Source: a virus. From it: DNA of 64,000 bases. Positions 1,851 to 29,598 of the stretch are shown here, one piece after another. The notes beneath the pieces are model-generated. The model ran no database searches. It worked only from the letters and a program-made list of their open reading frames with translations, and was not told the origin of the DNA. Location of the stretch: positions 1 to 64,000 of IMG/VR virus record IMGVR_UViG_3300037808_000992. One strand, written 5' to 3'. The stretch's first letter is position 1. The number at the start of each line of letters is the position of its first letter. Both the position numbers and the translations under genes were made by a program.

Positions 1851-3497
1851 ATGCCTTTACAAGAGGGCTCCAGCGACAAGGTAATTTCGGAAAATATCCG
1901 TCGTTGTGTGGATGAAGGGAAACGTTCCCATGATCAATGAATGGCTATCGCTTACTCAAAGGCTGGTCGTAGTCGAGTGGAGAAATCTATGTTTAAGTCA
2001 GTAGAAGAGTCTTTGAGTAAGGGACCACCCGTTGAGAAAATTAAGATGAAAAGAAGCGGAAAAGCCGCGCAGGTTATTGACAAACGGCAGGGAAAGGATC
2101 CGTGGGGTGGTAAGTTTGGTGTTGCTGTACAGGCGGTAGATGCTGCGGCAAAAAATCTAAAGACTCTCAAAACCCCTGTGTCAGTCAGAGAACCCACCCC
2201 CGTCGTTAGACGAGAGCGGCGTAAATTGGTGACCGGGCTAGAGGGTGCGCCGGTTTTGCCAAAAAGTGATCCAGCCAAGGTCTTACCCAAAAATATTTCA
2301 AAAACATCGTTGGAATCGGCATCGAAATTTAAAGCTACTCCTTTTGTTAATAAGCAGGCCGCGAAGACGTATAAAGGGCTAAGGGCTGATCCCAATAATA
2401 AGGTTCTGACTGATATGGAACTTAAAACAATAGCTAATGATGAATACGGGGTTAAGAAATCTATGTTTAAGTCAGTTGAAAATTCTATGTTTAAAGGTGT
2501 TCTCTCTACTGAAGATCGGGAAGACCTAAAAGAAAAGCAGTTTGCGCTTCCCAAGAAGGCCGAAGACAAAGAAGAGAAAGCGGAATCGGGCAACTACCCC
2601 ATCCCAGATCTATCTCACGCACGCAACGCATTGGCTATGGTAGCCCAACACGGCACTCCTGCTGAACAAGCTCAGGTTCGGGCTGCTGTGCATAAGAAAT
2701 ACCCTGAATTGGACAACCAAACAGACGAGGAGTCTAAAATGGACAAGTCATTACCTAGTACTGTAGACCCTGCGCGAGCCGCAGCGATTAATGAACCTAT
2801 TATCTCTCGCGGAAACACTACCCGCAGACAAGTCGCCGAGCACATGGCTAAGTCGTTTAATACGGGCGCACCTGTATTTGTAGAGGAACCATTTAATGGT
2901 CGATTACGTAAAGGTGTAGTTATTCCTAAAGGTCAGGGTGTAAAAGAGGCAGCAGCACAGGTTGCGAGCGAAAAAAAAGGGCGCGTTGATTCGAGTGGTA
3001 GTAAGGCCGACTTGAAGGCTGCTATACAAGCTTCTGGCCAACCCGCAACCAGTAAACAGGAGAATCTATTAACTAAGCTGAAGCCTGTACAATCAAGAAC
3101 GTTTAAGACGGTCGCCCCCCAACAACCTGGAGTCCAGGCACCTATAGTTGGGCAATCTTCTCCTGCGCGGGATGAAATGATTGCTTCTATGAAAGCCGCT
3201 CCTTCTAATACTCAAGTAGCTACCTTTATAAAGAAGATGGGCGGTTACGGGGGGCAGCTTAGTGGTGAGGCGGGTGCTAATCAAACGGTAAAGTTTGGAC
3301 GTAGCAGTGCGCAGAAGGAATTTAATAACTTTACTGATGCCCAGAAAAATCAAGTGTGGGCTGCGTTTAAGCGCGGCGTCAAAAGAACTCGCCCCTCCGC
3401 CACAGCTAAGAGCCCTGTAGTTCAGAAGTTGAGAGAGGGTTTGGGTTTGGGACAACCGAAACAAGTTGCTCCTGGTAAAGAAGTAAAACCTCGATAG
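1851..3497 (+). CDS. 548-aa basic head-associated protein with an in-frame TGA at codon 30 (candidate selenoprotein); includes a DUF6582-like module
   Basis: ATG 1851 has a GGAG SD and is in frame with the track ORF at 1941. The N-terminus MPLQEGSSDKVISENIRRCVDEGKRSHDQ*MAIAYSKAGRS is one continuous phage motif (MPL..G.S.K.IS.NI...Q..AIAYSKAG) spanning the TGA. 2499-2711 encodes LSTEDREDL...FALP...YPIPDLSHARNALAMV (DUF6582-like). Confidence 0.75.
1952..1980 (+). promoter_or_regulatory. candidate bacterial SECIS-like hairpin after TGA 1938-1940
   Basis: TTACTC-aaa-GGCT-[GGTCGT]-AGTC-GAGTGG. Stem starts 11 nt after the UGA; the G-first loop starts 24 nt after it. Confidence 0.4.
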
Positions 3498-3514
3498 GTA
3501 AGTCATGAGGTATT

Positions 3515-6500
3515 ATGGTTTACTTAAAAGACAGTTTATTTAAGGCGGTAGCCTCTGTTAAACCGCCAGTATCTATTCCACCACCTAAGGTTGAGGATGA
3601 TGAGGCTACCTCTGAAGTTGCCTCTCAAAAGACCCCTAATGTAGCTAAAAATCCTAAGGGTACGGATGGTCCTGCTGCGCGGGGCGGTCAAGTTGCAGGT
3701 ATTGCTAAACGTGGATTGGTTTATCAGTCAGAGAAGCAACGTCGTAATCCGACGTTTCCCACGGTTAATGTTCCTAAGCCTAAAAATACCCAAGTTTCTT
3801 TTAAGGTTAAAGATGTTAAGCCTGTAGCTCCTCTCAAACCCCCTCAACCACTTAAACCCCCTCAACCTTTTGAGTCACTCAAGGCGTCTATGCGCCATTA
3901 TTTGGATTTAGAAAAAGCGGAGAAGGGGTGGAATCCTACAGTTGTTACGCCAGGAAAAGAATTTACTGCAGGGGCTTCAGAAGTGGGCAATCAACCAAAG
4001 GGTCCTAACCCTAGTTTGAGCATGGGACCTACTCCTCAAGAGTTAGCGAGGAAAGAGGCTCAAGTAACTGCTACTCCAGAAGTAAAAACAGACTCTATTG
4101 AAGATGAAGGGCCTGTTGCCAAACCAATAGCGGTACAGCAAGGACCCACATCAACGCCTGAAGCAGGACCTACAGCGGCAGGACCTACAGCAGCAGGACC
4201 TACAGCAGCACCTGAAGCAGAACAGACACCACCAGCAACCAAACCAGTGTCAGCAGAGCAGACATCAGCACAGGCACCAGCAGAGCAGACATCAGCACAG
4301 GCACCAGCAGCGCCGCCAGTACCGAAGATGGTTGAGACGCCCACAGTACCAGGACAAGAGGTAAAGACGGTCAATCGTCCGTGTAGTCAAGGAACTACGG
4401 GCGGTACTTACGTTACAAAGACACCCACTGCGAATGGTTGTGCTTATATCTACAACCACCCCGAGAAGATGTCTCTTAGAGATTCAATGACGGGTAATGT
4501 TCTGCATGAGTGGGATCATAAAGATGTTCAAAATAACCAATTGGTTGTTCCCCCTAATATTGCTGAGCAACATGGGATTGACAAAGAAGCAGCTACATTG
4601 CCTCTTCGTCAAAATTGGAAAGAGCACCAACAAACAAATGTTAAATCTTCTGAGTTTGGTGAAAAGCATTTTGATAAAGATCACACTGAGGCTGTTAATC
4701 AGTGGAAGTCTGCTATAGCAAAGTTTAAAAGCAACCCTCATCACTATCACGAGGGTGGTGACGATCATGTAATTACGCAGGTGGGTCATCACGGAGCTTC
4801 TCTTTTAAATGAGCACCATGGTTCTAAATCGAAAGGGCTGGACGCATTACTTGCCGAGCATGAGCAGAAGCAAGCTAGAGTTAAAAAAGATGGGAACTTA
4901 GGTCCTGTTTACGAACAGATTAGATCTGGACAAGGGGCTGTTACTTTAGGCGGTTCCCATTCTGAGTTCCATCCTGATGCAATTAATCATATCCTCGCAC
5001 ATCCCCACGATCACTCCTTTGATGTAAGCAAGACGCCAGAGGGTCATATGACCGTCACCCTTCACGGGTACAGAGATCATGGAGATAAGCAGTGGCACGG
5101 TCGTTTAAACTCTCACGAAGCGGTTAGTCGGGTTGGGGGTCATGAGGCAGCAGCCGAACACCTCAGTAAGTATAACGATGCTCACCAAGCATTTTTTGAT
5201 GAGATTAAAGGTCGTCAAGAGCCTGTAGAGATCACCAACGAGAAGATTGTAAAACACATCACTAATAATGGTGATAAGTTTAATTTTGAGTTTATCCCCC
5301 ACGAGACGGACAAAGGGCAGGTTAAAGGGGTTCGTCTATTAGGTGTCAAACACCCCCATGCTTCGGATGAGGCGGGTGAGGGAGAGTGGGCTGGCGCTAA
5401 GCCTCCTAAAGGTGAGCGAACATTCTTACCTGCTAAAATTACTGAAGTAGAGACTAAGACAGATGTAACTGGCGCTGCGCCAGTACCGGGTGCTCCTATT
5501 AAGAAAACCCCTACACCTCCTGATTTAGGGGGTATAGAGAAGCTACCTCCAGATTTAAAAGAGGTGTTCAGGCCATTACCTCCTCAATCTACAGATCGGC
5601 AGAAGTTTGAGAAGTTAAAGCAGTGGGCTTTGGAGATGACGAAGCCAGAGCATCGACATGCTTCGGGCGGTTTGTTTAATGTGGGCGCTGCGTTAGCGTC
5701 TAAAGACATCGCAACAGCGGTTAGAGGTTTGTACAACACTGCGGCTCAAGGGATCCCCACAGTTGCGAATAACATACATGGCTCACTAGAGCGTGGTGAG
5801 AGGCGTGCGGCTCTTGAAGCCGAGCACAAGGTTTCTGAGAAAGACAAACATAAAACCAATCAATACCTTAGTGGTGAAAACTTTGGGCACTCAGATGTTC
5901 CAAAGACTGTAGGCACAACCAGTCACTGGTCTCCTAAACAACATACGCAATTTCATGCAGACTATGAAGCTCTCAGCAATGCGTATAAAGAGGACACTGA
6001 ACTCCCGAGTCATATAAAAGATCTGGTGTACGGTCACGTTTATGATCAGACCTTGCGTAAACATCGGATGACCGCTGATGTTGGAAGCGGTATCTACCAC
6101 AAGCAAACCACTCCTGCGCCTGAAGACATGGATGTGATGGATCACACCCTTAATGTAGTGGCTCACGATGCAGCACATCCTGATGAGGTAAAGAAGATAA
6201 AACAAAATATGCGTAAGTGGTCTAAAGAGACCCTTTATGAGTTTGGAGACGTACTAAGGCAGGCTCATGGGTTTGAAGACCCCCAAGACCGATACGACAT
6301 TATGATGTTGGCCCATCATAAAGGGAACACGCTGACGGGATTAGAGAATAAGACCCGTGCGATCTTTAATCGCACCCACGGCAAAGAAGTGGGTCAGATA
6401 AGCGCCAGAGATAAGTATACCGGTCCTAAGCTTTCCACCGCAGACCAACAGTGGAAGGACTACATGAAGGAAGTAGGTGCGGTAACCAAAGATTATGGGC

Positions 6501-9500
6501 GCACTCTCAAGGGCTATGAGAAGCAGATTGCGGCGTATGAAAAGAAGTACGAACACCATAAGAACAAATCGACGAAACATGATGCTGATGCTGCTGATAG
6601 GGGTAGGGAAACAGCAGTAGCCCCTGAATTACCTGCTAAAGCTCCCACAGAAGAAGCAGAAGCTACTCAAGCTGAAAAGTTATTAGGCGAGAAGAGAGAA
6701 GCTGCGGCTAAGAAGGAAACACCCTGGTGGCACAGCGAAGATGTTAACGAGAGTAGGACGTTTAAGCATGGAGTTCACCCTGATCAGAATGTAGGTAAGG
6801 TTATTGTTGATGATGTAACCGGCCAAAGGGGAGTCGTTGTCAGTGTTCACCCCGGTGATGATCAGACAAAGCCGCAGTACGGAATTAAGTTTATTAATGC
6901 CAATGCGCCCATACCGAAGACTAAAGAAGAGTTTCTTAAGTTAGAAGAGTCTGGAGATCACGTTACTACTGATCACCGTGATATTGATCGAGTTCATCTG
7001 AGTCACCAAGCGGGTACAGCAGCAACACCCTCTACAAATTCTGGAGTAGGTACCCATTGGAACTGGTCTAAGGTAGCGGCAGAGCATGTACCAGATGAGG
7101 CGAGATTTGCTAAGTATTCAGCAGAGTTAGGCAAGATTAAAAAAGAATTAAATATTGATCAGCCGCCTACTAAAGAGGAGATGGACCAGAAAGTTAAGGG
7201 TATGTCTTTGCATGAAAAGATAGAGGCGCGTAAGAGGGACGAGCTTAAAGGTGAACATAAAAAGAGTGTTGATAAACATTTTAAAGATAAGTCTGACAAA
7301 CAACTATCTGGCGAGTTCGAGGTTAAAGGTAATCCCAAATACAATGTAGGAACCGGGATTAGGCGTACAGACGGTACTTCGTTTATGATTAAACATTACG
7401 AAGGCCCAAACTCAGAACACCCCAATCGAAGTGAGTATATCACTGAAGAATTAGATGAAAATGGGAAGCTAGTTGAGGGTAAGATTTCTGCTTTAGAGCT
7501 TACTAAGCGTACTACTGGGGAGTCTAGGTGGAACGCTAGAAAACCAACGTGGCACCCTAGTTACTATGAAGATTTAAACACAAATCCAGATGCAAAATCT
7601 CGTTTTGAGAAAGATAGAGATTTAGAAGTTGCAGCACGGACTAGTAAGAAAGCTAAAGATGACACTCCGCTACCTACAAATCCTGAGGAATTAACCGAAG
7701 AGCATTTGACGCATCGTCCGAGAGCCCGTGTATCGTTTGATTTAGTAACTGAGGATTTACCCCACTCTAAAGAGATTGCGCACGGGATCTTTGGAGAGCA
7801 TGTACAGAATCTTAAAGATAAGGGAGTTCTCAAAGAAGAGTGGAGCATTCCTTTAGGCTACTCACATGGTGATGTAGATACGATGCCACAGCGATGGGCG
7901 CATTGGATTGCTCAAGTTGATGAGGCGGATAAAAATTATCTCGATGAAGAAGACCATGCGAGGTTCCACACAGCGCAGCAGGTATTTACAGAGCGTAAGA
8001 AAAAGTTACTAGATGAATACCGAGATACAATTAAGGCTGCGGCAGACTCTGGAGATGATAAGGCGTTAAAGAATAACCTCAATGCCTTTAGAGCCCGGTT
8101 GGTATTTGGAGAAGGTGGTTATCAAGATTTTGCAAATGTACTTAGAGGGTTAAAGACTAAAGTTAGAGACCGTAAGTACCAAGATAATCTTCCTTATAAT
8201 GATCCTTATGTAACTGCTGACGGCAGTGGTGCTGCTAAAGAGCTTACGAAGCTTAGACAGGATGCCCCTGAAGGTGTGGACACTAGCAAGCGCAGCATGA
8301 AAGCTAGTCTTGAGCTTGTGGAAGATTTGAAGGGCAAAGATGTAAGCATTACCGAAGATATTAAGGTTGAAGAGCCAGCAGACGTTGCCATGGCGGCAAA
8401 AGGACCTGGTAAAGAAAAAGCACCTACAGGTACAGAAGAAGCTCCTGTTGAGATGTCTAGATCTACTAAACGTAGGATTACGCAGGTTGGTAAGGATATA
8501 CAAACCCAATCTAGAGTTATTGAAAAGAAGCGAAAATCTTCTTTATACGACAACTTTAAAGCTGACATCGAAGCGCACCCCGATCACTTTAATGCTGAAG
8601 TAACAGATGACTCCATTACGATTCACGGTGTTAAAAACCATAAGACAGGTGAGTGGCATGGCCAGGAGTCTGTTGTTACCAAAGAGACGCCTGCTGCTGA
8701 AAGTGGGGATTTATCAGGCGGTATAAAAATTGAAGGCTCTGATAAAACCTATCGAATTACACCGGATGGCGTGGTTGAGTGGTTTACACCTAAGAACGAG
8801 TGGAGTTCGGTTAAAAATCTATCCATAAAAGATAAGGTTAAAGAGGCAGCAGGCGGCATTACGCCTAAGGTTAAGACCATCCCTTCTTCTGAACCAGAGT
8901 CTGAAGAATCTGACGATTATCGGGTGCAACATCAGCCAGCAGAAGATGGAGCGAGTGGTCACGAGATCGGAACCACAGATCATTTTCCAAAAGATATTCT
9001 TCAACACCCGGAGTTGTACACTACTCCGCTGGAACTTAGTGAAGTTAAAAAGTTTTGGCCTAAGATTGTAGCAGGGTCAGGTGATCCAGATGCAAAGATT
9101 ACTATTTATCGAGCAATGCCAAAGTCAGCGGGGAGTATCCTTGAAACTGGTAATTGGGTTACGCCGTCCAAGGCTTACGCTGAGCAACATGCCTACGGGG
9201 AAAAAGATTGGCATATCGTAGCCCACGAAGTTCCGCTTAAAGATATACGGTGGGATGGTAATAGCCTTATGGAGTGGGGCTACTTTGGCGCTGATAAAAC
9301 TAAGAAGGGTCCTGAATCTCAGTTTGCAAAGCATGGTAGGTATCTTTACCCAGTAGATGCTGAGGGGAATCCTGACACTGCAGAGAGTTCCGTACACAAG
9401 GTAGAGATTAATGGAGAACCTCGTTATATAACCCATGTCTTTGATGAACATTTAAATAGTAAGATATTTTATGAGTATAAAAAGGGTGCCGCTGACCCCC

Positions 9501-14890: not shown

Positions 14891-14951
14891 TTTGATGACG
14901 TGGTGATATTTTGTTTGTATTGTGCCAGTGGCTTATTTTGAGGTGCAAATA

Positions 14952-20348: not shown

Positions 20349-22343
20349 ATGTCTTGGTCAGATGCACAATTAAGCTTCGAAGAGTTAAGTAAGGCCGAAC
20401 CGAAGAAGGGCGGCCATATTCGCGCTAAGCTAAATAGGATCTCTAGCAAAGTATTTCCGAAGAAAGAGGTTAAGGTAGCGCCTGCTACGCTAAAGACCGT
20501 GAAGGGCGCACCTGCTGCGGTAGATTCAGTTGGCAGCGTTACCCCCAGGTCTCCAGAGGTGGAAAAGAGAGAACTTAAAGCGTTCGAAACGGAATCTAAA
20601 AAGACTGCGCCTAAGGTAGTGGCTAAACCTAAACGTGAAATAACTAAGTGGACAACGGCTAAAAGAACTATGCCTAAACCTGCTCCTACCGCTGTTCCTA
20701 AACCTCCTGCCAGATCTAAGGGAAAATGGGTGTTTGTGCCGAGGAAGCAGAGGACTCATTTGAGTTGGGGTGAGGCTAACCCGATGAAACGGGGCGGCAA
20801 AATGGTGGCGGGTGATCCGAAGAACTTCGTCTCGGGCGAGGGCGTAGACCAGCATAAAATGAATGCTGCTGCTAGATCAGCAACCTTCCACGGAAGGTTA
20901 ACGACGGCTCAAAAAGCTCAATTTAAAAAGTTAGTAGATGAGGGTAAAATTGGTGGGGAGTCTGGGATTAAGTCTCGTTGGGTAGATAGTCTACAACGTG
21001 ATGAGAATTTACGTCCAGGATCTATCAGTGCGAGAACAGGAAGCGCGTGGGCGAATTTAGTAAAGCCTGGTGCTCGTGTTAAACCCGTTGCCCCTGTTAA
21101 AGAAGCTACCTCTCAACCCCCTACACCTGTTGTTAAACAAACTCCTCCTGTTACACAAGCTCCAGTTTCCGGCCTATGGGCAAGCAATCCTCCTGCGGCC
21201 ACACGCAAAGTTAGCGACGTTTGGAATGCTCTTTCTAAGGATTCGCAGAAGCTATTTAGGACCTCTAGAATTTTTAAACAGGCTTGGGCAGCAGCAAAAA
21301 AAGATCTGGGTATTAAACCGGGAACCCGTAAACCAGGCCAAGCGTGGGGCACTGTTCCTCCAGCGGATTACGGCAAGGTTGCTGCGAGAGCTTTGGAGAT
21401 GTGGAAAAAGAGGCCCGGTTTTAAGGCTGAGGGTAAAAGAGTACTTACAAAGGTTAGTAGAAAGGGCCGTCCCGTTAAAAAGACCCCAGCTAAGGCTAAA
21501 CCTAAAAGCGGCACACCTTTTAGTAGTACTGTACCGCCTAAAGTAGCCAAAGCTGGGGCGTCTTCTACGGGTTGGAAGATCGGAAATAAAGTGACGACGA
21601 TTAATGGCAAAAAGTACAGATTGTACACTAAAGGCAAGGAGACAAAGTACTTTCCTTTAAAGCAGGCCACACCTAAACCTGAAGGCGACACACCTTTTAG
21701 TAGTAGTGGTCGCCCATCCGCGCCAAAAATTGATCGTACACCGCCTCCCGTAGTACGCCCTAAACTAATCACCCATAATGGCAGGCAGGCTATGAAAATG
21801 CCTGATGGATCGATTCGTAGTACGGACGGAAAAACGGAGTTGGAAGCTGCTCCCGCAAAGAAATCAATAGGAGAAAGTGACTTGAAGAAATCAATGGGCG
21901 TCCCGTTTGCACGGGCTAATACTAAAATTCCGTTAAACTCTCCTATGTCGAAGTACCGTAATCCTTCGTTTAGGTCGCAGAAGCAACGAGAGTCTAATTA
22001 TAAGGTCCATCCTGAACCATGGATGCCTCCGAATGCCATTTTCCGTCGTTACGCAAACGGTCAGTTAGATTTTGATTATGCGCGTAGCAAAGTAATTGAG
22101 AATCTCATGCGTCTTAAGAATGGCGTTCACCTAAATCAGGTGGAGACAGCTACTTTAGCAGCGATTATTCCTGGCATGAGTAATTTAATGCCTAAGGAAA
22201 TGGCAGGCACTCTTGTGCGTCTTGCCCCTGAAGAGGTTTTAAAGCTTCAATTGTTGGTCGGCGCAAAGACTAAAGAGATGTTGAACTGGAATGCTGGATT
22301 AGGTGGAGGCTCCGTACCTATGCGGTCGGTGACTTTATCTTAG
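20349..22343 (+). CDS. Lys/Pro-rich basic hypothetical protein, 664 aa (putative head cargo)
   Basis: GGAG SD; LSKA near the N-terminus; LKKS before a globular-looking C-terminal region. Confidence 0.8.
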   Translation: MSWSDAQLSFEELSKAEPKKGGHIRAKLNRISSKVFPKKEVKVAPATLKTVKGAPAAVDSVGSVTPRSPEVEKRELKAFETESKKTAPKVVAKPKREITKWTTAKRTMPKPAPTAVPKPPARSKGKWVFVPRKQRTHLSWGEANPMKRGGKMVAGDPKNFVSGEGVDQHKMNAAARSATFHGRLTTAQKAQFKKLVDEGKIGGESGIKSRWVDSLQRDENLRPGSISARTGSAWANLVKPGARVKPVAPVKEATSQPPTPVVKQTPPVTQAPVSGLWASNPPAATRKVSDVWNALSKDSQKLFRTSRIFKQAWAAAKKDLGIKPGTRKPGQAWGTVPPADYGKVAARALEMWKKRPGFKAEGKRVLTKVSRKGRPVKKTPAKAKPKSGTPFSSTVPPKVAKAGASSTGWKIGNKVTTINGKKYRLYTKGKETKYFPLKQATPKPEGDTPFSSSGRPSAPKIDRTPPPVVRPKLITHNGRQAMKMPDGSIRSTDGKTELEAAPAKKSIGESDLKKSMGVPFARANTKIPLNSPMSKYRNPSFRSQKQRESNYKVHPEPWMPPNAIFRRYANGQLDFDYARSKVIENLMRLKNGVHLNQVETATLAAIIPGMSNLMPKEMAGTLVRLAPEEVLKLQLLVGAKTKEMLNWNAGLGGGSVPMRSVTLS

Positions 22344-23006
22344 ATGCATCATTTTGTTCTAGAGGATATTTTTAAAGGTATCCGAAGTACCGGAGAAGGG
22401 GCAGGTGCGCCTTTCTTCCAAGGTAAAAAAGGACAAGCCAAAGGGCAGTTTGGTGGTCAGTTTACAGGATCCACAGGTAAAGAATGGGGGCCTCGTGGAG
22501 GTCACATTAAAGAGATTAGCGCGTCCACTGGTAAGCCTATTTATTATAAGCAGTGGGAAGGCGGGGCTCATAAGCCTGTAGTTACACAACCCCATGAAGG
22601 TGGTTCTTCTGAGGGTTATTCTGTTTACAGCCCTTCATCGGATCATGTAATTGGCCGGACATCGAGTGGTAAACCTATCCACGCTATGTCGGGGACGAAC
22701 AATACTCGCAAGTATCAATGGGACGATCATCGGGACGCAAGCCACGCTCACTTTTCATTGATGCACTATCTAATGAATTTAATAAATGAACGACGCAAAC
22801 ACGGTCATAGCATAAAGGGTTTGTTTAATTTAATAGACGCCCACTCTAAATTCGCTAGACACCACAAGGAACAGGCGCTTAAAGATCTTCTGCACGGAAA
22901 ACAGAAAGGTTTATCTGAAGAAGATTTAAGTGCGCGGAAGAAAGAGAGCGGCTTGTTTGGTCACGGAACTAAAAAGAAGAGCAGCAAAGGAAAATCTGAT
23001 GAGTAA
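22344..23006 (+). CDS. His/Gly-rich hypothetical protein, 220 aa
   Basis: IFKG motif; GPRGGHI...TGKPIY and HVIGRTSSGKPIH internal duplication; DDHRDASHAH. Confidence 0.75.
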   Translation: MHHFVLEDIFKGIRSTGEGAGAPFFQGKKGQAKGQFGGQFTGSTGKEWGPRGGHIKEISASTGKPIYYKQWEGGAHKPVVTQPHEGGSSEGYSVYSPSSDHVIGRTSSGKPIHAMSGTNNTRKYQWDDHRDASHAHFSLMHYLMNLINERRKHGHSIKGLFNLIDAHSKFARHHKEQALKDLLHGKQKGLSEEDLSARKKESGLFGHGTKKKSSKGKSDE

Positions 23007-24738
23007 CTGGTACAGCACACTAGATGTCTTAGATGAGTTACAAGGGTTAGAGTTGCCCCCCTCAAACGACTCGGAGTGGTTTAAGTCATTAGATGTTTTG
23101 GATAACTTTGACTTATATAAAGCTGATAAAAAGACTGAGGAATTCCGTAAGAGGGCCTTGTCAAGAGCCAGCAAGGAGCAAACTGCTGGGGCTGCTAGAA
23201 AGGGATTTTATAGCGCAAGCGGCCCGTTTAAAGCTATAACAGGAGAGCAGTTAACCCGTTCCCACTGGAACAGCATCAGCGGCGCTGATCGGATGAAATG
23301 GGGGGATGTATCAAGGGGTTATCGACGTTTCCACAAGACATCTGCCGGTCAATCTACAACTCGCGGTATGCGTCCCAAAGATTGGAAAAATATTAAAGAA
23401 GCTAATGTTGGTGCCGCCGGTATGCCTGAGTGGATGATGCTTATACCGGCGTTGCTGTCGGGAGGGGCACGGGGTCGCCAAACACCATCGCAGAAAGTCA
23501 GGTATCACGATAAGTCATCGGGCACCTCGTTACGTATGAAAGCAACGGGTAAAGAAACAGTAAAAGTAAATCCCCAAAGACAGCTTGAGGCACCTAAAGG
23601 GCGTGCGACTAAAACAAAACCAGGGGGTAGGCAAAAAGCAGATATTAAGATCCCATCTAAGCAAAATCCGGGGGAGGGTCTGCGTGAGTTTTGGCAAAGA
23701 AGATCAGCCGCCAAGCAGCGCCAGTCAGTGGAAGCAGGTAAGCGTGGGCGACGAGTTCCGGGGGAGAGTGTAGACGCATCTACAGTATCCCAAAAAGGAC
23801 CCGGATGGGCGGAGAGAATGTATGCTAGGGGTAAAGAAGGTGTTGCAAAATGGCGTGCGAAGGGCAAAACAGCACCTTTAAAACCTGGGTCTGCGCTAAG
23901 AGGGGCTACAACAGGAACTCTGGCGGAAGCTATGCGGTCAGCGACGAGTCTTACCCCTGAAAAAGGTTTTGTGTGGGATAAAAAAAGTGGGAAGTATGTC
24001 AAGTACGAACCATCCTTTGCGAGGCGCTTGCTTGGAGGACCCACTGCAGGTACGCCTGGAGTAATTCCAGAGTCTGAACTCGGCCCCCGTAAGCATTTAA
24101 AACGCATAGGTTATTTACCAGGAACCAAAGAGCCTGTTTATTTAAATGAAAAAACAGGGAAGGTGTGGAGTTCACAACCGAAAGGGGGAGCAATTGGTTG
24201 GTCTTCTCTTAAGGAGTATAAAGAGCAGTACGGTTTAGATCCAAAAAGTCAGAAAGGTTTGAAAAAATGGGCGAAGCACGGAGAGCCCAAAGAAACCACG
24301 ATCTCTCCGGGGCATAAAGCCCCTGCTGTTTCAGATTCTAATCTAGTTTCTATTAAGGTACCTCACCACCTTTGGAAACAGCAGGCTGGTTCTCAACACG
24401 CAACGCTTCCAAAAATGGTACCCGGTCATTTTGATGAAGCGCAGGGCAAGTATGTGACACGCGGAAAAGGAACCACTAAGAGGTTTGATACAAAAACTAG
24501 TACGTGGAGTACGATTAAACCTACATGGAAAACTGGGAGCAAAGCAGCGGAAGTTACGGATCCAAGGTCCTCGCATGTTCGTGGTAAGGGTGGCGGAAAG
24601 CAGAGAGTTATGATGCCCATGACTTATAATATTAGCTCTGGAAAATTAACTTATTCAGGGGGCCAGTACGACGGTAAAACAAGTAAGCAAGTAATGAGTA
24701 CTGTTTATAAACCTAAGCAACCGAAGAAGACTGAGTAA
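22999..24738 (+). CDS. Lys/Gly/Arg-rich basic hypothetical protein (putative head cargo)
   Basis: ATG 22999 follows AAGGA, preferred over the track start 22930. Acidic leader with duplicated W(Y/F).(T/S)LDVLD, then WFKS and LYKA. Confidence 0.8.
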   Translation: MSNWYSTLDVLDELQGLELPPSNDSEWFKSLDVLDNFDLYKADKKTEEFRKRALSRASKEQTAGAARKGFYSASGPFKAITGEQLTRSHWNSISGADRMKWGDVSRGYRRFHKTSAGQSTTRGMRPKDWKNIKEANVGAAGMPEWMMLIPALLSGGARGRQTPSQKVRYHDKSSGTSLRMKATGKETVKVNPQRQLEAPKGRATKTKPGGRQKADIKIPSKQNPGEGLREFWQRRSAAKQRQSVEAGKRGRRVPGESVDASTVSQKGPGWAERMYARGKEGVAKWRAKGKTAPLKPGSALRGATTGTLAEAMRSATSLTPEKGFVWDKKSGKYVKYEPSFARRLLGGPTAGTPGVIPESELGPRKHLKRIGYLPGTKEPVYLNEKTGKVWSSQPKGGAIGWSSLKEYKEQYGLDPKSQKGLKKWAKHGEPKETTISPGHKAPAVSDSNLVSIKVPHHLWKQQAGSQHATLPKMVPGHFDEAQGKYVTRGKGTTKRFDTKTSTWSTIKPTWKTGSKAAEVTDPRSSHVRGKGGGKQRVMMPMTYNISSGKLTYSGGQYDGKTSKQVMSTVYKPKQPKKTE

Positions 24739-24902
24739 TGAAGCACGAATCTAAATTAGGAGATCTCTCGGAGCTTAGAAAGTCTGCTCGAAGAGAACCG
24801 AACCTAACCCCTGTCCAAACAGCAGTTAAGATCCTTCTTCTAAAAAACTTACTCCCCAAAGAAGGAGTAAGTAAGCGATTGAAAAAATTAAGCAGTGAAT
24901 AG
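24738..24902 (+). CDS. 54-aa basic hypothetical protein (below ORF-track cutoff)
   Basis: MKHESKLGDLSELRKSARREPNLTPVQTAVKILLLKNLLPKEGVSKRLKKLSSE. TAATG coupling to the upstream gene; fills the gap exactly; LRKS motif. Confidence 0.6.
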   Translation: MKHESKLGDLSELRKSARREPNLTPVQTAVKILLLKNLLPKEGVSKRLKKLSSE

Positions 24903-25347
24903 CCATCTCAAAGAGAGAATTCCTCAGCATATTGAGGAACTCAAAAAATCGCAGCCAATAGAAGATTACTGCACTAACTGTGGTGCATGTTGCCACGCTG
25001 GAGTCGATATTAATAAAGGGCTCCAACAGTTTAGAGTCTTAGTTAATGAACTTCCTTGTAAGCATTTAGTGTGGAAGGGAATGAAAAGTACATGCGCTGT
25101 GTATGGGGAACGACACCATAAAGCGAAATGGTGTGCAGACCTCCCTGAGATGTTAGAGAAAGGCTTAGTCCCTAGAGATTGTCCGTATGTAGAGAACTTG
25201 GAAGGGTACCGTCCAACTTTAATTTTAGAAGACGATATCTACAAAAGTATTGTCCCAGCGTTAAAAATGGCAATTTCGGATTCTACAAGTCAGCACGGAT
25301 CTGATCCTTTTAATAATTTTGATCTTAGAGATTTTTTAAAGTCTTAA
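24895..25347 (+). CDS. YkgJ/CxxCxxCC-family cysteine-cluster protein
   Basis: CTNCGACCH...LPCKHL...CAVYGERH...WC...CPY pattern. Confidence 0.8.
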   Translation: MNSHLKERIPQHIEELKKSQPIEDYCTNCGACCHAGVDINKGLQQFRVLVNELPCKHLVWKGMKSTCAVYGERHHKAKWCADLPEMLEKGLVPRDCPYVENLEGYRPTLILEDDIYKSIVPALKMAISDSTSQHGSDPFNNFDLRDFLKS

Positions 25348-25394: not shown

Positions 25395-25516
25395 TGGTTG
25401 CCGGGTGGTTGTTACTTTGCAGTTTTTAATTTGTTTGCTAACAATCGCGATATAGGATAATTTTTGAAAATTGTTATGTCGCAATTTAAAAGTAAGTTGC
25501 TAAGATAGTAGGCTAG

Positions 25517-26287
25517 ATGGTCGAAGAAAATACATTTGATTTCTGGGTTCCTATCAGCAAGTCCAAGGCTGCTGACGACGGGAAGTCTCGTGTTATAGAG
25601 GGAATCGCCTCTACGGCTGATATGGATCTTCAAAACGAACGTGTAGAGCCTAACGGAATCGACTTTGATTATTTTTTAAAGCACGGCTACTTTAATTGGG
25701 ACCACAAACCCGGAGCCCAGAATAAAGTGGGTGAGCCTTTAGAGTGTAAAATTACTCCTAAGGGACTCTACGTTAAGGGTATCGTTTACAAGGGTAAGCA
25801 AGTGGCTGACGCTGTGTGGGAGCACATCAAAGCGTTAGGTAACAACCCCGACTCTCAACGGAAAATGGGATTTTCTTTACAGGGAAAAACCACTCGTCGA
25901 AACGGAAAAAACATCCTTCGGTGCTGGGTGCAGGACATCGCAATTACGACCGCCCCTATTAATTACAATACATATTTAGACATCGTTAAGTCATTAGGCG
26001 AGGTTAATTGGTGCGAGACACCTGACGCAAATGACTGCGTTTGTTGTAAATCATTTAATATGGCGCAGGGTGGCAAAGTTACCACCCCCGAGTCTCTTCA
26101 TGACGACACCACAGTCGTAACTTACAATCTTAGTGATAAGGATGAAGAAGAGAAAGAAGAAGAAAAGAAGCGAGAGAAAAAGAAAATTACTAAGAAAAGT
26201 CTTGCAACCTCAATTTCAAATAAATTAGGTTACTCAAGTCAAAGTTCAGAACTTTTGGCCGATGTGCTATTTGCACTTTCTTATTAG
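25517..26287 (+). CDS. prohead (capsid maturation) protease
   Basis: IEGIASTADMDLQNE...GIDFDYFLKHGYFNWDH...GEP...GLYVKG...MGFSLQG...IAITTAPIN: HK97-fold protease of the SPO1/Twort type, with the His and Ser motifs present. Confidence 0.93.
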   Translation: MVEENTFDFWVPISKSKAADDGKSRVIEGIASTADMDLQNERVEPNGIDFDYFLKHGYFNWDHKPGAQNKVGEPLECKITPKGLYVKGIVYKGKQVADAVWEHIKALGNNPDSQRKMGFSLQGKTTRRNGKNILRCWVQDIAITTAPINYNTYLDIVKSLGEVNWCETPDANDCVCCKSFNMAQGGKVTTPESLHDDTTVVTYNLSDKDEEEKEEEKKREKKKITKKSLATSISNKLGYSSQSSELLADVLFALSY

Positions 26288-26298
26288 GAGATATTTAG

Positions 26299-27027
26299 AT
26301 GAGTCAGATTATTAAACCACTTCCTGGGAAACATGAAGATGGAGTCTTTTGGGCCGATGGTGACATGGATACCTACGATGACATGGCCGAAGGCGAACTC
26401 CATGTTGATGAAGACGGTAATTATGTACCCAAGTCGGTGAAGAAAAGCGTTCGTCTTTATAGTGGCCTTATTCACAATGACGATCTTCTCAAAGCAATGA
26501 GTGATGAGAACGAAGACGAAGACGACCAAGGCGAAGAAGAAGAGGTTGAAGCAGACCTGGAAGAGAAGGTAACTAAATCCTTCTTTAGCTTTGTCGAAGA
26601 TAACCCGGTTATCGTTGAGGGAATTAATAACTCCCCATTCTTATACGAAATGGTTAAGTCACTTGGTTTAACCTTCTTAAGTTTAGAAGATCGAGTTGGC
26701 GCATCCTTGCACCAGGTAGACTCAGACTTTACTGAGTTTGCTAAAAGCTTAGATTTTGTATTTGATGATCTTGGTAAGAGCATCAGCACAATCAATGGAA
26801 CTGCAGGTCAAATGGACATGCATAAGTCTATTGACGGCGCTGACACTGACGAAGTTCAGTACCTTGAAAAGAGTGGCTTTGAGCCAGAGCAAACTATGTC
26901 CCGCGAAGATGTGCTTTCTCGCCTCGTTAAGGGTGTAGAAGAGGGTAAGATTCCTCCTCTAGCCGTAATGAAGTATGAGCACACTGGCTTCCTGGGTCCT
27001 GATATCCAAAAAAGCATTGGGCTGTAG
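26299..27027 (+). CDS. acidic scaffold-like protein 1
   Basis: Between protease and capsid genes; acidic and helical; about 10 xxK(S/A/G) motifs; GGAG SD. Confidence 0.75.
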   Translation: MSQIIKPLPGKHEDGVFWADGDMDTYDDMAEGELHVDEDGNYVPKSVKKSVRLYSGLIHNDDLLKAMSDENEDEDDQGEEEEVEADLEEKVTKSFFSFVEDNPVIVEGINNSPFLYEMVKSLGLTFLSLEDRVGASLHQVDSDFTEFAKSLDFVFDDLGKSISTINGTAGQMDMHKSIDGADTDEVQYLEKSGFEPEQTMSREDVLSRLVKGVEEGKIPPLAVMKYEHTGFLGPDIQKSIGL

Positions 27028-27039
27028 GGAGTACTAAAA

Positions 27040-27777
27040 ATGTCTGAAACTAGATTTGAATCGGATTTAGTAAAGTCTCTTGAGAAACTTGACGAGATTT
27101 TAACTAAATCACAAATAGGCATCACAGGTCATACCGGTGACGAGCCTGAGGAGTGGGAAGGCGGCGACGTTACCCACTATGACACTGACAAAGACGCAAA
27201 GTGGGTCGATAAAGATTACATCACCGAGGGTGGCGATTATGAGCCCAAGAAGGTGAAGAAAGCTTACGACGACGATGATGAAAGCGCCGAAGATAAGCGA
27301 ATTGGTGCGGACGAAGAAGATGAGTGGGAAGCTGGGAAGAAAGCGGGCGAAGACGTTAAGAAAGGCGTTGAAGTCAGTGAGTTCCTTTCTGAGCTTACCA
27401 AGTCTATCGCTCTGTACTCCAACTACCTTGAGGGGTATATGGAAAAATCCATTCTTCAACTTCATGAAGAGCATGGCGGAATGGCAAAAGCAATTGCCGA
27501 GAATCTTGTTACTTTGAGTGACATGATTCAGAAATCCGAAGGAAACATCTCTGACTTCGCTGAAGAGCCTACGCGGGCTCCTAAGAGTATGATGAGTTTG
27601 GAAAAATCGATTGAAGGTGGGGATGAAGTTCCTCAGATGTCAAGCGATGATATTTTAAATAGATTGGTTAAGGGCGTCGAGGACGGCATCGTGTCACCTC
27701 TTGAGGTCATCAAGTTCGAGCAACTTGGTCCTCAAGCACTAAATCAAGACGTGGTTAAGAGCCTTTTAGCTTCTTAG
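27040..27777 (+). CDS. acidic scaffold-like protein 2 (paralogue of the preceding gene)
   Basis: Shares the C-terminal MS..D.L.RLVKGVE.G...PL.V.K(Y/F)E..G motif; many xxKS motifs. Confidence 0.75.
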   Translation: MSETRFESDLVKSLEKLDEILTKSQIGITGHTGDEPEEWEGGDVTHYDTDKDAKWVDKDYITEGGDYEPKKVKKAYDDDDESAEDKRIGADEEDEWEAGKKAGEDVKKGVEVSEFLSELTKSIALYSNYLEGYMEKSILQLHEEHGGMAKAIAENLVTLSDMIQKSEGNISDFAEEPTRAPKSMMSLEKSIEGGDEVPQMSSDDILNRLVKGVEDGIVSPLEVIKFEQLGPQALNQDVVKSLLAS

Positions 27778-27787
27778 GAGAAAATAA

Positions 27788-29257
27788 ATGTTACCCCAGA
27801 TTAGCTTGAAAGATTATGATGGGCTGAATGGCTTCGGATCGTCTACTATTGGTGACGTAAACGAGCTTACTAAAGCCCTTTCTGCCGGTTATCAGACTGC
27901 TGGTCAAACAGGCGGTTCAGCACTTCGTGTTGAGAGCCTTGAAGCCAGCCTGAAAGTCGTCACTTTTACAAACAGGCATATTAAACTTTGGAAGAAAATT
28001 CCGAAGAGCCCTGCCTACTCAACCGTTGAAGAGTTCAACGTACTCAGTGCCTATGGCAATACTGGGGCGTTTGGCTTTACCCGTGAGGGTGAGCTTCCGC
28101 AGACTCAAGACTCGACCTACACCCGTCAGACGGCACTGGTCAAGTTCATGGGTACAACTCGTTCAGTAACTCACCCCGCTACGTTGGTTAACCCCGCGCA
28201 CGGCGATGTGATTGCCCTGGAGAACCAAAATGGTATCTCTTGGCTGCTTGAGCGTGTTGAGGACAGCCTTTTCCACGGTAACTCTGGCCTTGCCTTTGAT
28301 GGTGAAGCAGAGCAGTGGGATGGTCTAGACGGCTTAATCGCTGCTGGTAACGTTGTTGACCTCGAAGGTCAGCCCTTACAAGAGGCAGACATTGAAGAGG
28401 CTTCTAACTTGGTAGTTGAGAGCTTCGGTTATCCCACGGATATGTTCCTGGGTACCCGCGCAATGAGCGACCTCGTGAAGACTTTCTATCCTCGTGAGCG
28501 TGTACACTTACCCGCTCCTTCGGATGGTAAGGTAGGTATGTCCATTACTTCGATGTCCACCCAAGCTGGCGACATTGAGTTCAACCCGGATGTATTCCTT
28601 CGCCAAGGTAAGCAACCGCCTGCTGCAGGCACGAGTGCAAACGCACCCGCTGCTCCAGCACAGGCTTTGACTGCCGTTGGTGCTACAACCGCTGCTGAGT
28701 GGGCTAAGTCTATTGGCGCGGCTCCTGCTGCTAACAATTTCTTTTGTTACGGAGTAACTGCTTGTAACCGATTTGGTGAGTCAGCACCTCGTTTGAGTGT
28801 GATTGCTGGTCCTTTGTCTAACGGTATCCAGCTTTCTCCAGCACAGGCTATTGCTGGTAACCCGATTACGGTTACTACCACTAACCCTGCTATTGTTGGT
28901 GCTAATCCCCCTGAGTATTTCATTATCTATCGTACTCGCCCTCAAGCGACTAATGCGATGGTTACTGACATGTCTCAGTACAGTGAGATTGCTCGTGTCC
29001 GGTGTACTACCCAAGCTGGTGGTGGTGTCAACGCAGTCTTTACTGATAACAACGCTATAATGCCTTTCACAGAGACTGCATACCTGGGCCAGTTGACACC
29101 TTCCGTGTTGACTTTCCGTCAGCTTGCTCCTCTGATGAAGATGGATCTTGCGGTGTTAGCTCCTGCGTATCGATGGATGGTGATGCTCTATGGCACGCCA
29201 ATCCTGTTTGCGCCTGCTAAGTGGATTCGATTAACTAATATCGGACGACTTGGTTAG
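27788..29257 (+). CDS. major capsid protein
   Basis: ELTKALSAGY...GGSALRVESLEASLK...KSPAYSTVEEF...REGELP, and C-terminal QLAPLMKMDLA...MLYGTPILFAPAKW..LTNIG: SPO1/Twort-like MCP motifs. AGGAG SD. Confidence 0.95.
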   Translation: MLPQISLKDYDGLNGFGSSTIGDVNELTKALSAGYQTAGQTGGSALRVESLEASLKVVTFTNRHIKLWKKIPKSPAYSTVEEFNVLSAYGNTGAFGFTREGELPQTQDSTYTRQTALVKFMGTTRSVTHPATLVNPAHGDVIALENQNGISWLLERVEDSLFHGNSGLAFDGEAEQWDGLDGLIAAGNVVDLEGQPLQEADIEEASNLVVESFGYPTDMFLGTRAMSDLVKTFYPRERVHLPAPSDGKVGMSITSMSTQAGDIEFNPDVFLRQGKQPPAAGTSANAPAAPAQALTAVGATTAAEWAKSIGAAPAANNFFCYGVTACNRFGESAPRLSVIAGPLSNGIQLSPAQAIAGNPITVTTTNPAIVGANPPEYFIIYRTRPQATNAMVTDMSQYSEIARVRCTTQAGGGVNAVFTDNNAIMPFTETAYLGQLTPSVLTFRQLAPLMKMDLAVLAPAYRWMVMLYGTPILFAPAKWIRLTNIGRLG

Positions 29258-29272
29258 AGCTAAGTGTACTTG

Positions 29273-29325
29273 GGATTACGTAAGTCTCTACAATTCTTTG
29301 AAGACGTAGAGACTTACGTGTATCC
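29273..29325 (+). terminator. strong stem-loop after the capsid gene (terminator or mRNA stabiliser/processing site)
   Basis: Perfect 14-bp inverted repeat ACGTAAGTCTCTAC (29278-29291) / GTAGAGACTTACGT (29306-29319), 14-nt loop, only a short T run after it. Confidence 0.6.
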
Positions 29326-29358
29326 TTTATCTGAAACGGTATATCAAAGGAGAATCTT

Positions 29359-29598
29359 ATGCCGGTTATGACCAAAGCCCAATATGCAGAGTGGGTAAAG
29401 CGCGTTAATGCTGGAAATAAGATCATTAAAGCAGAGGCTCCCGTTAAAAAAGAAGCCCCTAAAGTAAAGAAACCTGAAGTAGAGAAACCTGAAGAAGTAG
29501 CAACTCCGGTTGCTGAGCCCGAACTCAAGGAGAAGCCAAAAGCTGCTCCTAAAAAGGCTTCTACAAAGAAGTCTTCCTTTAAAAAGTCGAAGAAATAG
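29359..29598 (+). CDS. small Lys/Glu/Pro-rich protein, 79 aa
   Basis: AAGGAG SD; typical position after the MCP; IIKA motif. Confidence 0.75.
   Translation: MPVMTKAQYAEWVKRVNAGNKIIKAEAPVKKEAPKVKKPEVEKPEEVATPVAEPELKEKPKAAPKKASTKKSSFKKSKK

Follow-up and report, generated by a model that had tools for sequence, protein, structure and literature searches.

A probable Lys-type prohead protease motif in the head block of an uncultured SPO1/Twort-type phage and its candidate role on accessory proteins

Gene content of the head block

The window, i.e. the whole stretch of 64,000 nt analysed here (positions 1 to 64,000 of IMG/VR record IMGVR_UViG_3300037808_000992), carries on its + strand genes for a portal protein (17753..19930; phrog_12, E 2.5e-53; PF04860), a prohead (capsid maturation) protease (25517..26287; phrog_1028, E 3e-44), two acidic scaffolds, A (26299..27027; pI 4.2; weak match to phrog_15087 scaffolding) and B (27040..27777; pI 4.4), and a major capsid protein of the SPO1/Twort type (27788..29257; phrog_752, E 1.5e-98). 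The same block holds accessory genes amounting to about 7000 codons, the figure given by an earlier sequence-only reading. That reading took the motif hydrophobic-x-Lys-[Ser/Ala/Gly] for a tag directing disordered, mostly basic proteins to the prohead, where they would be cut and either ejected or used to organise the DNA, and all the motif instances it listed are present in the genes concerned. The proteins are indeed mostly basic (pI about 10 for 9 of 12); disorder applies to part of the set, but not to the enzyme domains of the giant protein or to the blocks of strong conservation in the 22344 family.

The protease comprises a catalytic domain (residues 10–146) and a C-terminal helical hairpin (222–256). 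Its AF2 model matched T4 gp21 (5jbl, E 3.7e-5) and then herpesvirus assemblins in Foldseek, and hhalign aligned it with HK97 gp4 (E 1.3e-4), with the invariant H63 opposite HK97 H65. On this model the protease adopts the fold shared by T4 gp21 and the herpesvirus assemblins; it is of the SPO1/HK97 type. The other invariant residue, Ser120, aligns with HK97 Ser118, while Ser114, which we take to be the reported catalytic Ser of HK97, is set opposite a Lys; the assignment of the catalytic Ser by alignment is therefore unsettled. The motif occurs at residues 13–16 (I-S-K|S), a position conserved in all relatives, and at 156–159 (I-V-K|S) in a disordered linker.

The giant polyvalent protein (3515..14890; 3,791 residues, 420 kDa; PF18763; phrog_10691/5143/2299) begins with the leader MVYLKDSLFK|A (nt 3515–3547). 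It has a DdrB-like ParB domain at about 2540–2685 (PF18763, 52 bits, above its cut-off) and a GNAT-like region at about 3190–3260, where the GNAT matches fall below the cut-off. Further motifs lie at residue 132 and, three of them, within the last 60 residues, whereas the core is depleted (5 sites versus 17–18 expected, P<=0.001 by local shuffles). Control patterns inside the core were not depleted, nor was the motif in homologous polyvalent proteins from elsewhere. The head-protease motif thus brackets the protein at its ends and is avoided within.

Three accessory proteins are rich in sites and form a multi-cut class. The first (1941..3497; 518 residues, pI 10.1) has 11 motifs versus 3.9 expected from shuffles (z 4), three of them in its first 28 residues, and V-K-K-S-M-F-K-S is repeated. 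A start at 1851, as proposed earlier for VEKSMFKS, needs read-through of a TGA, but with the ATG at 1941 the motif still falls at residues 13–20. The second (19917..20345; 142 residues, with a C-terminal zinc-ribbon-like CxxC...CxxC) has 7 motifs versus 0.6 (z 8.4), and the third (24895..25347; 150 residues, a YcgN/YkgJ-like CxxCxxCC cysteine-cluster protein) has 6 versus 0.56 (z 7.2), its N-terminal site being conserved in 9 of 11 relatives.

The remaining accessory proteins carry fewer sites. Directly upstream of the portal, a basic protein of 360 residues with KKEAPAP repeats (16665..17747) has a single site, in its leader MHKHYLHK|G; relatives' genes at this position begin MKLYIDLNK|A, MKLYLDNTISK|A and MRLYLDIDLYK|A. 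A conserved protein of 220 residues (22344..23006) starts with MHHFVLEDIFK|G (nt 22344–22379), and F10 and K11 are invariant across its 28 homologues. Basic proteins are encoded at 14922..16106 (394 residues; L-T-K|A and L-F-K|S near the N-terminus) and 22930..24738 (about 580–600 residues from a probable start at 22999; its leader region holds W-F-K|S and L-Y-K|A, and no site lies further in); start codons are uncertain for these two genes and for 1941. The basic 54-residue product of 24738..24902 has L-R-K|S at 13, and that of the corresponding gene in relative G001 has it at 17. In the basic 664-residue protein (20349..22343), L-S-K|A lies at 13 and L-K-K|S at 512, just before a C-terminal module (522–664) that is a separate gene of about 150 residues in relatives. 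The basic 187-residue protein (16109..16672) has internal sites only (FGKSLLKS, 132–139), and its C-terminal part matches a region within a 1,058-residue protein of G001. After the capsid gene, a Lys-rich protein of 79 residues (29359..29598) has three motifs, and its counterpart in G001, the nearest relative, has no site; its membership in the set is doubtful. Two accessory families have a positionally conserved N-terminal site.

Distribution and conservation of the motif

Using [LIVMFW]-x-K-[SAG] and composition-preserving shuffles, we found the motif within the N-terminal 45 residues of 16 of the 17 head-block proteins (4.5–5.0 expected). The accessory proteins alone gave 11 of 12 versus 3.4–3.9 (exact Poisson-binomial P 7e-6 to 2e-5), the 16109 product being the exception. 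In contrast, tail proteins matched expectation (5 of 26 versus 3.8–4.6, not significant), and replication proteins likewise had no excess.

Both scaffolds contain 11 motifs, close to the ten or so noted earlier, versus 1.0 expected in A (z 10) and 1.3 in B (z 9); their relatives average 12 versus 1.6 in each case (n=42 for A, n=54 for B). Predicted cut fragments would not exceed 45 residues for A and 51 for B. Across 58 scaffold sequences the motif is enriched 7.6-fold, whereas hydrophobic-x-R-[SAG] is depleted (0.39x), as are hydrophobic-x-K followed by other residues and non-hydrophobic-x-K-[SAG] (0.57x each). Positions P3 and P2' around the motif are hydrophobic.

In the capsid protein, a propeptide of 29 residues is predicted, with cleavage at L-T-K29|A30 (nt 27866–27877). 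L-x-K-A-L is invariant among 71 relatives while residues 1–25 vary, and in the alignment with the capsid protein of Staphylococcus phi812 type (PDB 5lii) the site falls on V-V-K24|S25; the deposited 439-residue chain of this type, 9row_B, begins at S25. SPO1 Gp6.1 (9vel) carries LNKAL at the corresponding site. The Twort-like cut site is taken here from the deposited chain length, and that of the window protein would follow by homology. The four-residue motif is short and by itself insufficient, as exemplified by a conserved I-P-K-S at capsid residue 71, which lies in a folded region and is probably uncut. In the portal, the two N-terminal sites (L-E-K|A, 4–7; I-N-K|A, 22–25) are conserved in the nearest relatives; the C-terminal site (V-E-K|S, 712–715), although present as claimed, is absent from them and was seen only in more distant ones. 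The invariant capsid position, its alignment with the deposited chain start and the saturation of scaffolds in all relatives argue well for cleavage at the motif by the head protease.

Five large relatives provided 61 accessory proteins, mostly unrelated to those of the window (BLAST relates only 9 of them to a protein of the window). An N-terminal site is present in 43 (11.2 expected, P 8e-20) and missing in 18. Several Lys-rich leader-bearing proteins have no internal site (0 versus 4.9; 0 versus 2.9), but internal avoidance is not general, the relatives' long head-block proteins having 77 sites versus 65.5 expected; one of 786 residues has 11 internal sites versus 3.8. Some of these probably end up as fragments, unless the signal is a mixed one. 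Across the clade the accessory block measures 7–25 kb, and its genes turn over rapidly. Among 1,158 N-termini, 24 distinct ones have a longer leader, M-x-L-Y-L-x-x-D-hydrophobic-x-K|A/G/S, where 0.5 would be expected; the proteins that carry it are unrelated and range in length from 135 to 3,791 residues, which fits the idea of a portable tag. Leader length varies between 4 and 50 residues, and the M-x-L-Y-L consensus fits no more than about one leader in four.

Comparison with known head-processing systems

The capsid-targeting sequence (CTS) of T4, present on IPI–III and Alt, is removed by prohead protease gp21 (PMC9026906). As in T4, unrelated and often basic proteins begin with a leader of about 10 residues, and the leader closes with what would be the cleavage site for the phage's own protease, an assemblin-fold enzyme. 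This site is also dense in the scaffold core and would serve to trim the capsid protein, the proteins near the portal and the protease itself; as in T4, too, cargo genes differ between relatives. Here, however, P1 is Lys and P1' Ser/Ala/Gly instead of the Glu type (L/I-x-E), the leader M-x-L-Y-L-x-x-D-hydrophobic-x-K is unrelated to MKTYQEFIAE, the capsid and protease lineages are of SPO1/HK97 type, the cargo genes, including that of the 420-kDa protein, are contiguous between portal and protease, and the system is known from sequence alone. In phiKZ-like giants (SPN3US gp245, phiKZ gp175), N-terminal propeptides are cut at A/S/G-x-E; many head-internal or ejection proteins have propeptides of 20–250 residues with repeated cut motifs, and the protease processes itself (PMC10052503). 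Propeptides on many head proteins and protease self-processing would thus be shared with the window phage, whereas the Glu-type motif and the lineage differ, and about 80% of SPN3US head proteins are uncut while nearly all head-block proteins of the window have a site.

The Lys-type cutting rule is not new, since SPO1, CP-51 and HK97 have the same signature. The SPO1-type scaffold has 11 motifs versus 1.2 expected, that of CP-51 13 versus 1.4, and the HK97 delta domain 4 versus 0.84, including F-N-K103|S104; hydrophobic-x-K|S/A occurs at the capsid site and in the scaffold or delta domain of HK97 (protease gp4) and Herelleviridae (SPO1, Twort/phi812, CP-51), which share the gene order portal-protease-scaffold-capsid with the window. 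In cultured members, however, the portal adjoins the protease and small candidate substrates number no more than one or a few (in SPO1L1, a Lys-rich 144-residue protein upstream of the portal), whereas the window clade has 7–25 kb of tagged accessory genes inserted.

Phage P1 likewise has very large multi-enzyme Dar proteins among its late genes, with head loading via an N-terminal signal, of about 30 residues in DarB; the available text of PMC9024508 and PMC5512222 does not link this signal to a protease motif, whereas the motif brackets the window giant. In the available text of PMC5512222, polyvalent proteins are proposed to be processed by their own zincin-like peptidase domains and not by the head protease, and P1 DdrB, the namesake of the ParB-type domain PF18763 shared with the giant, is incorporated into the head. 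By homology, we count this domain as a capsid link.

Possible roles of the leaders

We consider it likely that the Lys motif is the prohead protease site and that the leaders mark proteins inside the prohead. The protease would recognize and cut hydrophobic-x-Lys|Ser/Ala/Gly (more fully, acidic-acidic-hydrophobic-x-K|S-hydrophobic). In the new prohead it would chop both scaffolds into peptides of up to 51 residues, able to exit the shell, strip 29 residues off the capsid protein, trim both the portal and its own chain, and remove short leaders from a dozen accessory proteins of the block. Since the leaders carry a site that would be removed inside the prohead, they would mark accessory proteins present there at maturation. 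Any targeting information more likely lies upstream of the four-residue motif; the longer leader is the likely counterpart of the T4 CTS and would bind the scaffold core until freed by the cut. Proteins with only an N-terminal site fit trimmed, retained cargo: the basic trim-only class without internal sites (the DdrB-ParB/GNAT-like giant and the 16665, 22344 and 22999 products) would remain beside the DNA inside the head and probably exit together with it at infection. The accessory set is heterogeneous, however, the multi-cut proteins (1941, 19917, 24895) being more likely assembly factors degraded like scaffolds or proteins cut into pieces. The sequence-only reading is thus partly supported; the cutting of accessory proteins, leader targeting, retention and ejection are what the sequence suggests.

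A less probable reading keeps the motif as a cut site but gives the leaders no addressing role, the cut merely releasing or activating proteins, as in a zymogen propeptide, that enter the prohead otherwise, e.g. by binding portal, scaffold or DNA. The low information of four residues, the variable leaders and the other internal determinants used by P1 DarB and N4 vRNAP (available text of PMC9024508 and PMC5512222) favour it, but the leader consensus recurs across unrelated proteins about 50 times as often as expected, and a T4 propeptide of this kind, 10 residues long, suffices for targeting (PMC9026906). It is somewhat less probable still that most accessory proteins are extra scaffold, core or assembly factors that the protease would destroy and that would be missing from mature virions, so that the block would be an elaborate assembly core instead of a delivered payload. 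The site-rich proteins, including some in relatives such as that of 786 residues, resemble scaffolds in this respect and all lie between portal and protease; yet avoidance of internal motifs in trim-only proteins makes sense only if survival of the protease is needed, the giant's enzyme domains are typical of injected polyvalent proteins, and structural assembly factors do not turn over so rapidly. It is very improbable that the pattern is no protease signal and stems instead from a high Lys content, or from an amphipathic or coiled-coil periodicity of head proteins. The proteins are Lys-rich, and hydrophobic P3 and P2' recall amphipathic helices, but the controls already contradict this reading: whole-protein or local composition shuffles give 3–5 where 11–16 are observed, Arg does not substitute for Lys, other P1' and P3 classes are depleted, the site position is conserved though its flanks diverge, and tail and replication proteins have no excess.

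What is new, under the preferred reading of a protease site whose leaders mark prohead proteins, is the large, fast-changing block of basic proteins across the clade, the longer shared leader M-x-L-Y-L-x-x-D-hydrophobic-x-K|A/G/S, and the motif depletion within the DdrB-ParB polyvalent protein. Nearly every protein of the head block, the giant included, carries the motif and would probably enter the capsid to be trimmed inside it, in the manner of the Glu-tagged proteins of T4.

Head genes and the distribution of the motif

All genes in the window, which is the first 64 kb of an IMG/VR contig of 100,984 bp (estimated completeness ~60%), lie on the + strand. PHROGs/Pfam assigned the portal (17753–19930, +), and the PHROGs/Pfam screen also assigned the head maturation protease (25517–26287, +), two acidic, weakly scaffold-like proteins (26299–27027 and 27040–27777, both +) and the major capsid protein (27788–29257, +). 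The protease gene thus follows the portal and precedes the scaffold and capsid genes, as expected for assemblin-fold prohead proteases. The capsid protein shares 42–46% identity with the major capsid proteins of Bacillus SPO1-like phages and, among solved structures, matches PDB 9vel (SPO1 Gp6.1; E 7e-105) and PDB 5lii (the phi812-type capsid protein; E 3e-33). Related loci in IMG/VR numbered 71, with capsid identities of 47–78%; among their contigs, those of 166 and 171 kb are near-complete. In two large relatives, G004 and G005, the portal ORFs (G004:C1:118063-120750 and G005:C1:125672-128344; loci L079 and L078) have ~994 residues, with the portal similarity split by ~1.2 kb, and the G005 protease ORF has 568 residues versus the usual 256; these essential head genes thus have large in-frame insertions, possibly inteins.

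The sequence-only reading had proposed that the core head proteins and the accessory proteins encoded among them (12 in the window, named here by start coordinate) share a motif, hydrophobic-x-K-[SAG], counted here as [LIVMFW]-x-K↓[SAG], in which the arrow marks the cut predicted for the prohead protease of the phage. Every instance it named was found in the sequence, and the enrichment test that it called for, using shuffles that keep the composition of each protein, confirmed the observation: a site within the first 45 residues was present in 16 of 17 head-block proteins (4.5–5.0 expected) and in 5 of 26 tail proteins (3.8–4.6 expected). For the accessory proteins alone the count was 11/12 (3.4–3.9 expected; exact P 7e-6 to 2e-5). 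The scaffolds contain 11 motifs each (1.0 and 1.3 expected), and high counts were also obtained for the 19917 (7 vs 0.6 expected), 24895 (6 vs 0.56) and 1941 (11 vs 3.9) proteins. In the part of the contig devoted to replication and lysis, the motif showed nothing unusual. The short 1851 ORF (1851–1943) comprises 29 codons from ATG 1851, and its TGA (1938–1940) abuts ATG 1941 of a 518-residue gene, to which it is either coupled as a small upstream ORF or joined by read-through of the TGA; counted from ATG 1941, VEKSMFKS occupies residues 13–20.

The same pattern was found when five large relatives (G001 to G005) were examined over 40–60 kb surrounding their head genes; the portal-to-capsid distance in these is 10–27 kb and is occupied by accessory genes. 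BLAST showed similarity to a window protein for only 9 of the 61 accessory genes of these relatives, and 43 of the 61 products carry the motif in the first 45 residues (11.2 expected, P 8e-20); with the core proteins included the count is 62/82 (14.7 expected). Outside the head block it is 38/196 (24.8 expected), a small excess that is due to genes immediately upstream of the portals. G002 to G005 also encode, immediately upstream of the protease (e.g. in the L081/L084 region), zinc-ribbon proteins of 51–81 residues, three of which share C-x-C-G-E-x-hydrophobic-hydrophobic-K↓S, conserved near residue 13; judged from their sequences, these appear to be another conserved small protease substrate, one absent from the window at that position.

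The prohead protease and its predicted cutting rule

An AF2 model of the protease, built from 25 relatives, was confident over residues 10–146 (pLDDT ~90). A Foldseek search with it gave T4 gp21 (5jbl) as the best match (E 3.7e-5, prob 1.0), followed by the HSV, KSHV, HCMV and EBV proteases, and the catalytic domain is accordingly modelled with the assemblin fold of T4 gp21, HK97 gp4 and herpesvirus assemblin. A Pfam search with the protease gave no match; profile comparison with HK97 gp4 (E 1.3e-4) placed His63 opposite HK97 His65. H63 and S120 are unchanged in the 25 relatives, and the invariant Ser120 is probably the catalytic serine, although in an ambiguous part of the alignment it pairs with HK97 S118 and not with S114, the catalytic Ser reported for the HK97 protease. 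The enzyme itself carries an N-terminal site, I-S-K↓S, whose position is kept in every relative while its flanks differ, and a second one, I-V-K↓S (residues 156–159), in a disordered linker between the catalytic domain and a C-terminal helical hairpin that, in the model, could anchor the enzyme in the prohead.

Around each Lys of 58 distinct scaffolds, P5/P4 were acidic, P3 was M/L/V/I/F, P1' was Ser>Gly>Ala and P2' was I/F/L, and 48% of the scaffold lysines lay inside the motif. A pure effect of composition, or a generic preference for basic residues, Arg as well as Lys, is ruled out by the counts of motif variants in these scaffolds: the motif is enriched 7.6-fold, whereas depletion is seen when Arg replaces Lys (0.39x) or when P1' or P3 is of another class (0.57x), and hydrophobic-x-E-[SAG] shows no enrichment (0.6x). 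Such Lys-specific enrichment with depleted variants fits a sequence-specific endopeptidase, and helix periodicity would not predict it. Cuts at all sites would leave peptides of at most 51 residues from both scaffolds.

The capsid proteins point to the same site. L-x-K-A-L is unchanged in those of 71/71 relatives, the preceding 25 residues being freely variable, and the window L-T-K29↓A30 aligns (HMMER) with V-V-K24↓S25 of the phi812-type protein in its full-length form of 463 residues (5lii). Since the 439-residue deposited chain of the same protein, 9row_B, has S25 as its first residue, S25 was read as the mature N-terminus, in agreement with the ~23 residues that the capsid proteins of Twort, K and A511 reportedly lose. 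SPO1 Gp6.1 has L-N-K-A-L at the equivalent position. Both the capsid homology and the predicted maturation cut after a Lys ~20–30 residues in thus fit a head module of the SPO1/Twort type. The scaffolds of CP-51 and of an SPO1-type phage contain 13 (1.4 expected) and 11 (1.2 expected) motifs, respectively, and their portals and proteases have the same N-terminal sites. The delta domain of HK97 gp5 has 4 copies (0.84 expected), including F-N-K103↓S104 at the boundary known to be cut by the HK97 protease. Removal of ~104 residues is mentioned for HK97 in PMC9024508. The occurrence of one signature in SPO1-type phages, CP-51 and HK97 makes the cutting rule a property of the whole protease lineage, and in itself it is not new. 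A literature search for an explicit cleavage rule in Herelleviridae, HK97 or T5 found no such statement, so the Lys rule rests on the sequences, the length of one PDB chain and the loss of ~23 residues mentioned above for the capsid proteins of Twort-like phages, K and A511. We regard the identification of the motif as a protease site as well supported and very probably correct.

Leaders, putative cargo and the giant protein

Alignment at the first site revealed a longer recurring N-terminus, M-x-(L/H)-(Y/F)-(L/I/V)-x(1-5)-hydrophobic-x-K↓(A/G/S), usually with Asp/Glu ahead of the hydrophobic residue. Examples are MVYLKDSLFK↓A of the giant protein (3515–14890, +; 3,791 residues), MHHFVLEDIFK↓G of 22344, MNRLYISTDLVK↓A on a 1,016-residue protein, MKLYLDNTISK↓A and MRLYLDIDLYK↓A. 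As a regular expression, this leader matched 24 distinct N-termini among 1,158 ORFs (0.5 expected from local shuffling), on unrelated proteins of 135 to 3,791 residues, and it ends in the motif that the scaffolds repeat and at which the capsid protein would be matured. It is the nearest counterpart here of a T4-style capsid-targeting sequence. The cultured Bacillus phage SPO1L1 encodes, directly upstream of its portal (L091:4805-5239), a protein of 144 residues (24% Lys) that begins with MDKDVLLVVMVDDLIK↓G and is a possible minimal version of such leader-tagged basic cargo.

Sites are conserved in position within families. F10 and K11 are invariant in the 28 sequences of the 22344 family, and site position is also conserved among homologues in the 24895 family and the portal (two N-terminal sites); a conserved cut at the portal C-terminus was rejected for the nearest relatives, which lack the site. 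In the 20349 protein, L-K-K↓S at residue 512 immediately precedes a C-terminal module that relatives encode as a gene of its own, which in the more distant ones carries an N-terminal site as well. Most accessory proteins had no match in Pfam, PHROGs or NCBIfam, and 9 of the 12 have a pI of ~10; besides the giant, a recognisable family was found only for the 24895 protein (24895–25347), which lies inside the head module, is conserved in relatives and has a YcgN/YkgJ-like CxxCxxCC cysteine cluster and six protease motifs. The AF2 model of the 22344 family (28 sequences) had an overall pLDDT of 48.8, with a confident helical hairpin at residues 126–183 and low confidence elsewhere. This family (22344–23006) has an invariant His-rich block, W-D-D-H-R-D-A-x-x-A-H-F, without a family match, and by its sequence the product could be a metal-binding enzyme. 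Short tandem peptide repeats occur in Lys-rich proteins, e.g. KKEAPAP (16665–17747) and, in the tail module, VEKVEKVEK (38629–38916).

The giant, encoded upstream of the portal with three small accessory genes between, has a DdrB-like ParB domain (PF18763, 52.1 bits vs cut-off 27.6) and a sub-threshold GNAT region (23 bits vs Pfam cut-off 27). No ART domain match was found in the giant itself; its distant homologues P0029 and P0030 carry PF18760 (ART-PolyVal) and PF18763. No relatives were found in IMG/VR, a search of a large protein database gave two distant polyvalent homologues only, and matches were obtained to PHROGs built from other giant phage proteins. Its size, multidomain sequence, DdrB-ParB domain and position among virion genes fit the polyvalent proteins of phages. 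After the leader region, residues ~200–400 (window 4100–4700) form a Pro/Ala/Thr-rich repeat tract (AAGPTAAGPTAAGPT...) that is likely a flexible spacer.

Sites in the giant lie at residues 8 and 132 and, three of them, within the final 60 residues, whereas the 3,650-residue core has 5 motifs vs 17–18 expected (P<=0.001 when shuffled locally over 30, 50 or 100 residues); the control patterns there are at or above expectation. Two distant polyvalent homologues from other sources show no depletion (13 vs 12.2 and 23 vs 13.8). Such avoidance is expected of proteins that must survive in the prohead beside an active protease, and several Lys-rich leader-bearing proteins of relatives, selected post hoc, likewise have zero internal sites (0 vs 4.9, 0 vs 2.9, and others). 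As a general law it was rejected: the pooled long proteins of relatives, with 77 sites vs 65.5 expected, show no net avoidance. The 1941 and 19917 proteins, 24895 and some proteins of relatives have a site density like that of scaffolds, and degradation or cleavage into fragments is the more likely fate for them. All the functional steps are ones that we infer. The accessory proteins are likely to be prohead residents trimmed by the head protease; that those which would be trimmed only, the giant among them, are retained and ejected as cargo is plausible, with about even chances, and for the multiply cut ones it is unlikely.

Comparison with known systems and implications

T4 equips Alt and its variable basic internal proteins with a 10-residue capsid-targeting sequence that ends in the gp21 motif (PMC9026906). 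The clade of the window phage likewise has a short N-terminal leader common to unrelated proteins and ending in the predicted cut motif of its own prohead protease, but P1 is Lys, not the gp21-type L/I-x-E, no MKTYQEFIAE-like leader is present, and the capsid/protease lineage, scale and layout also differ. With Lys at P1 and hydrophobic-x-E-[SAG] not enriched, the system is like that of T4 in its working and not a member of it; functionally, the arrangement would be that of T4. A similar propeptide arrangement occurs in phiKZ/SPN3US, where propeptides are cut at A-x-E (PMC10052503), the site chemistry being Glu there and Lys here. P1 DarB shows that a giant protein is loadable via an N-terminal signal (PMC9024508). 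The namesake of PF18763, phage P1 DdrB, undergoes processing and becomes part of the P1 head, and phage polyvalent proteins have been predicted to be capsid-packaged, with self-processing by zincin-like peptidases proposed (PMC5512222); the giant, in contrast, is bracketed by the head-protease motif.

A broader reading, to which we give slightly less than an even chance as a whole, is that i) uncultured SPO1-like myoviruses of ~130–170 kb use the Lys-type leader throughout a whole clade, ii) this leader, M-x-L-Y-L-x-x-D-hydrophobic-x-K↓A/G/S, is a portable capsid-loading tag behind which 7–25 kb of genes for unrelated basic proteins and for giant polyvalent enzymes are swapped, iii) the prohead takes up the tagged proteins, the head protease trims them, and they are delivered along with the DNA, and iv) a minimal version is present in cultured Herelleviridae, where it would have gone unnoticed since trypsin-based virion proteomics is blind to a cut after Lys. 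Herelleviridae-like phages include therapeutic phages of Staphylococcus, Listeria and Enterococcus, and virion-delivered effectors could be predicted in such phages from sequence by this rule. The leader would also be a candidate tag with which SPO1-like capsids could be loaded with foreign proteins, and for giant polyvalent proteins the reading offers a testable account of how they enter the capsid and, by avoiding sites, survive the maturation protease. If true, this would be a second cargo-addressing system, chemically distinct from that of T4 (Lys-type, of the SPO1/HK97 lineage), and would suggest that protease-removed loading tags are a general solution of tailed phages and not a peculiarity of T4.
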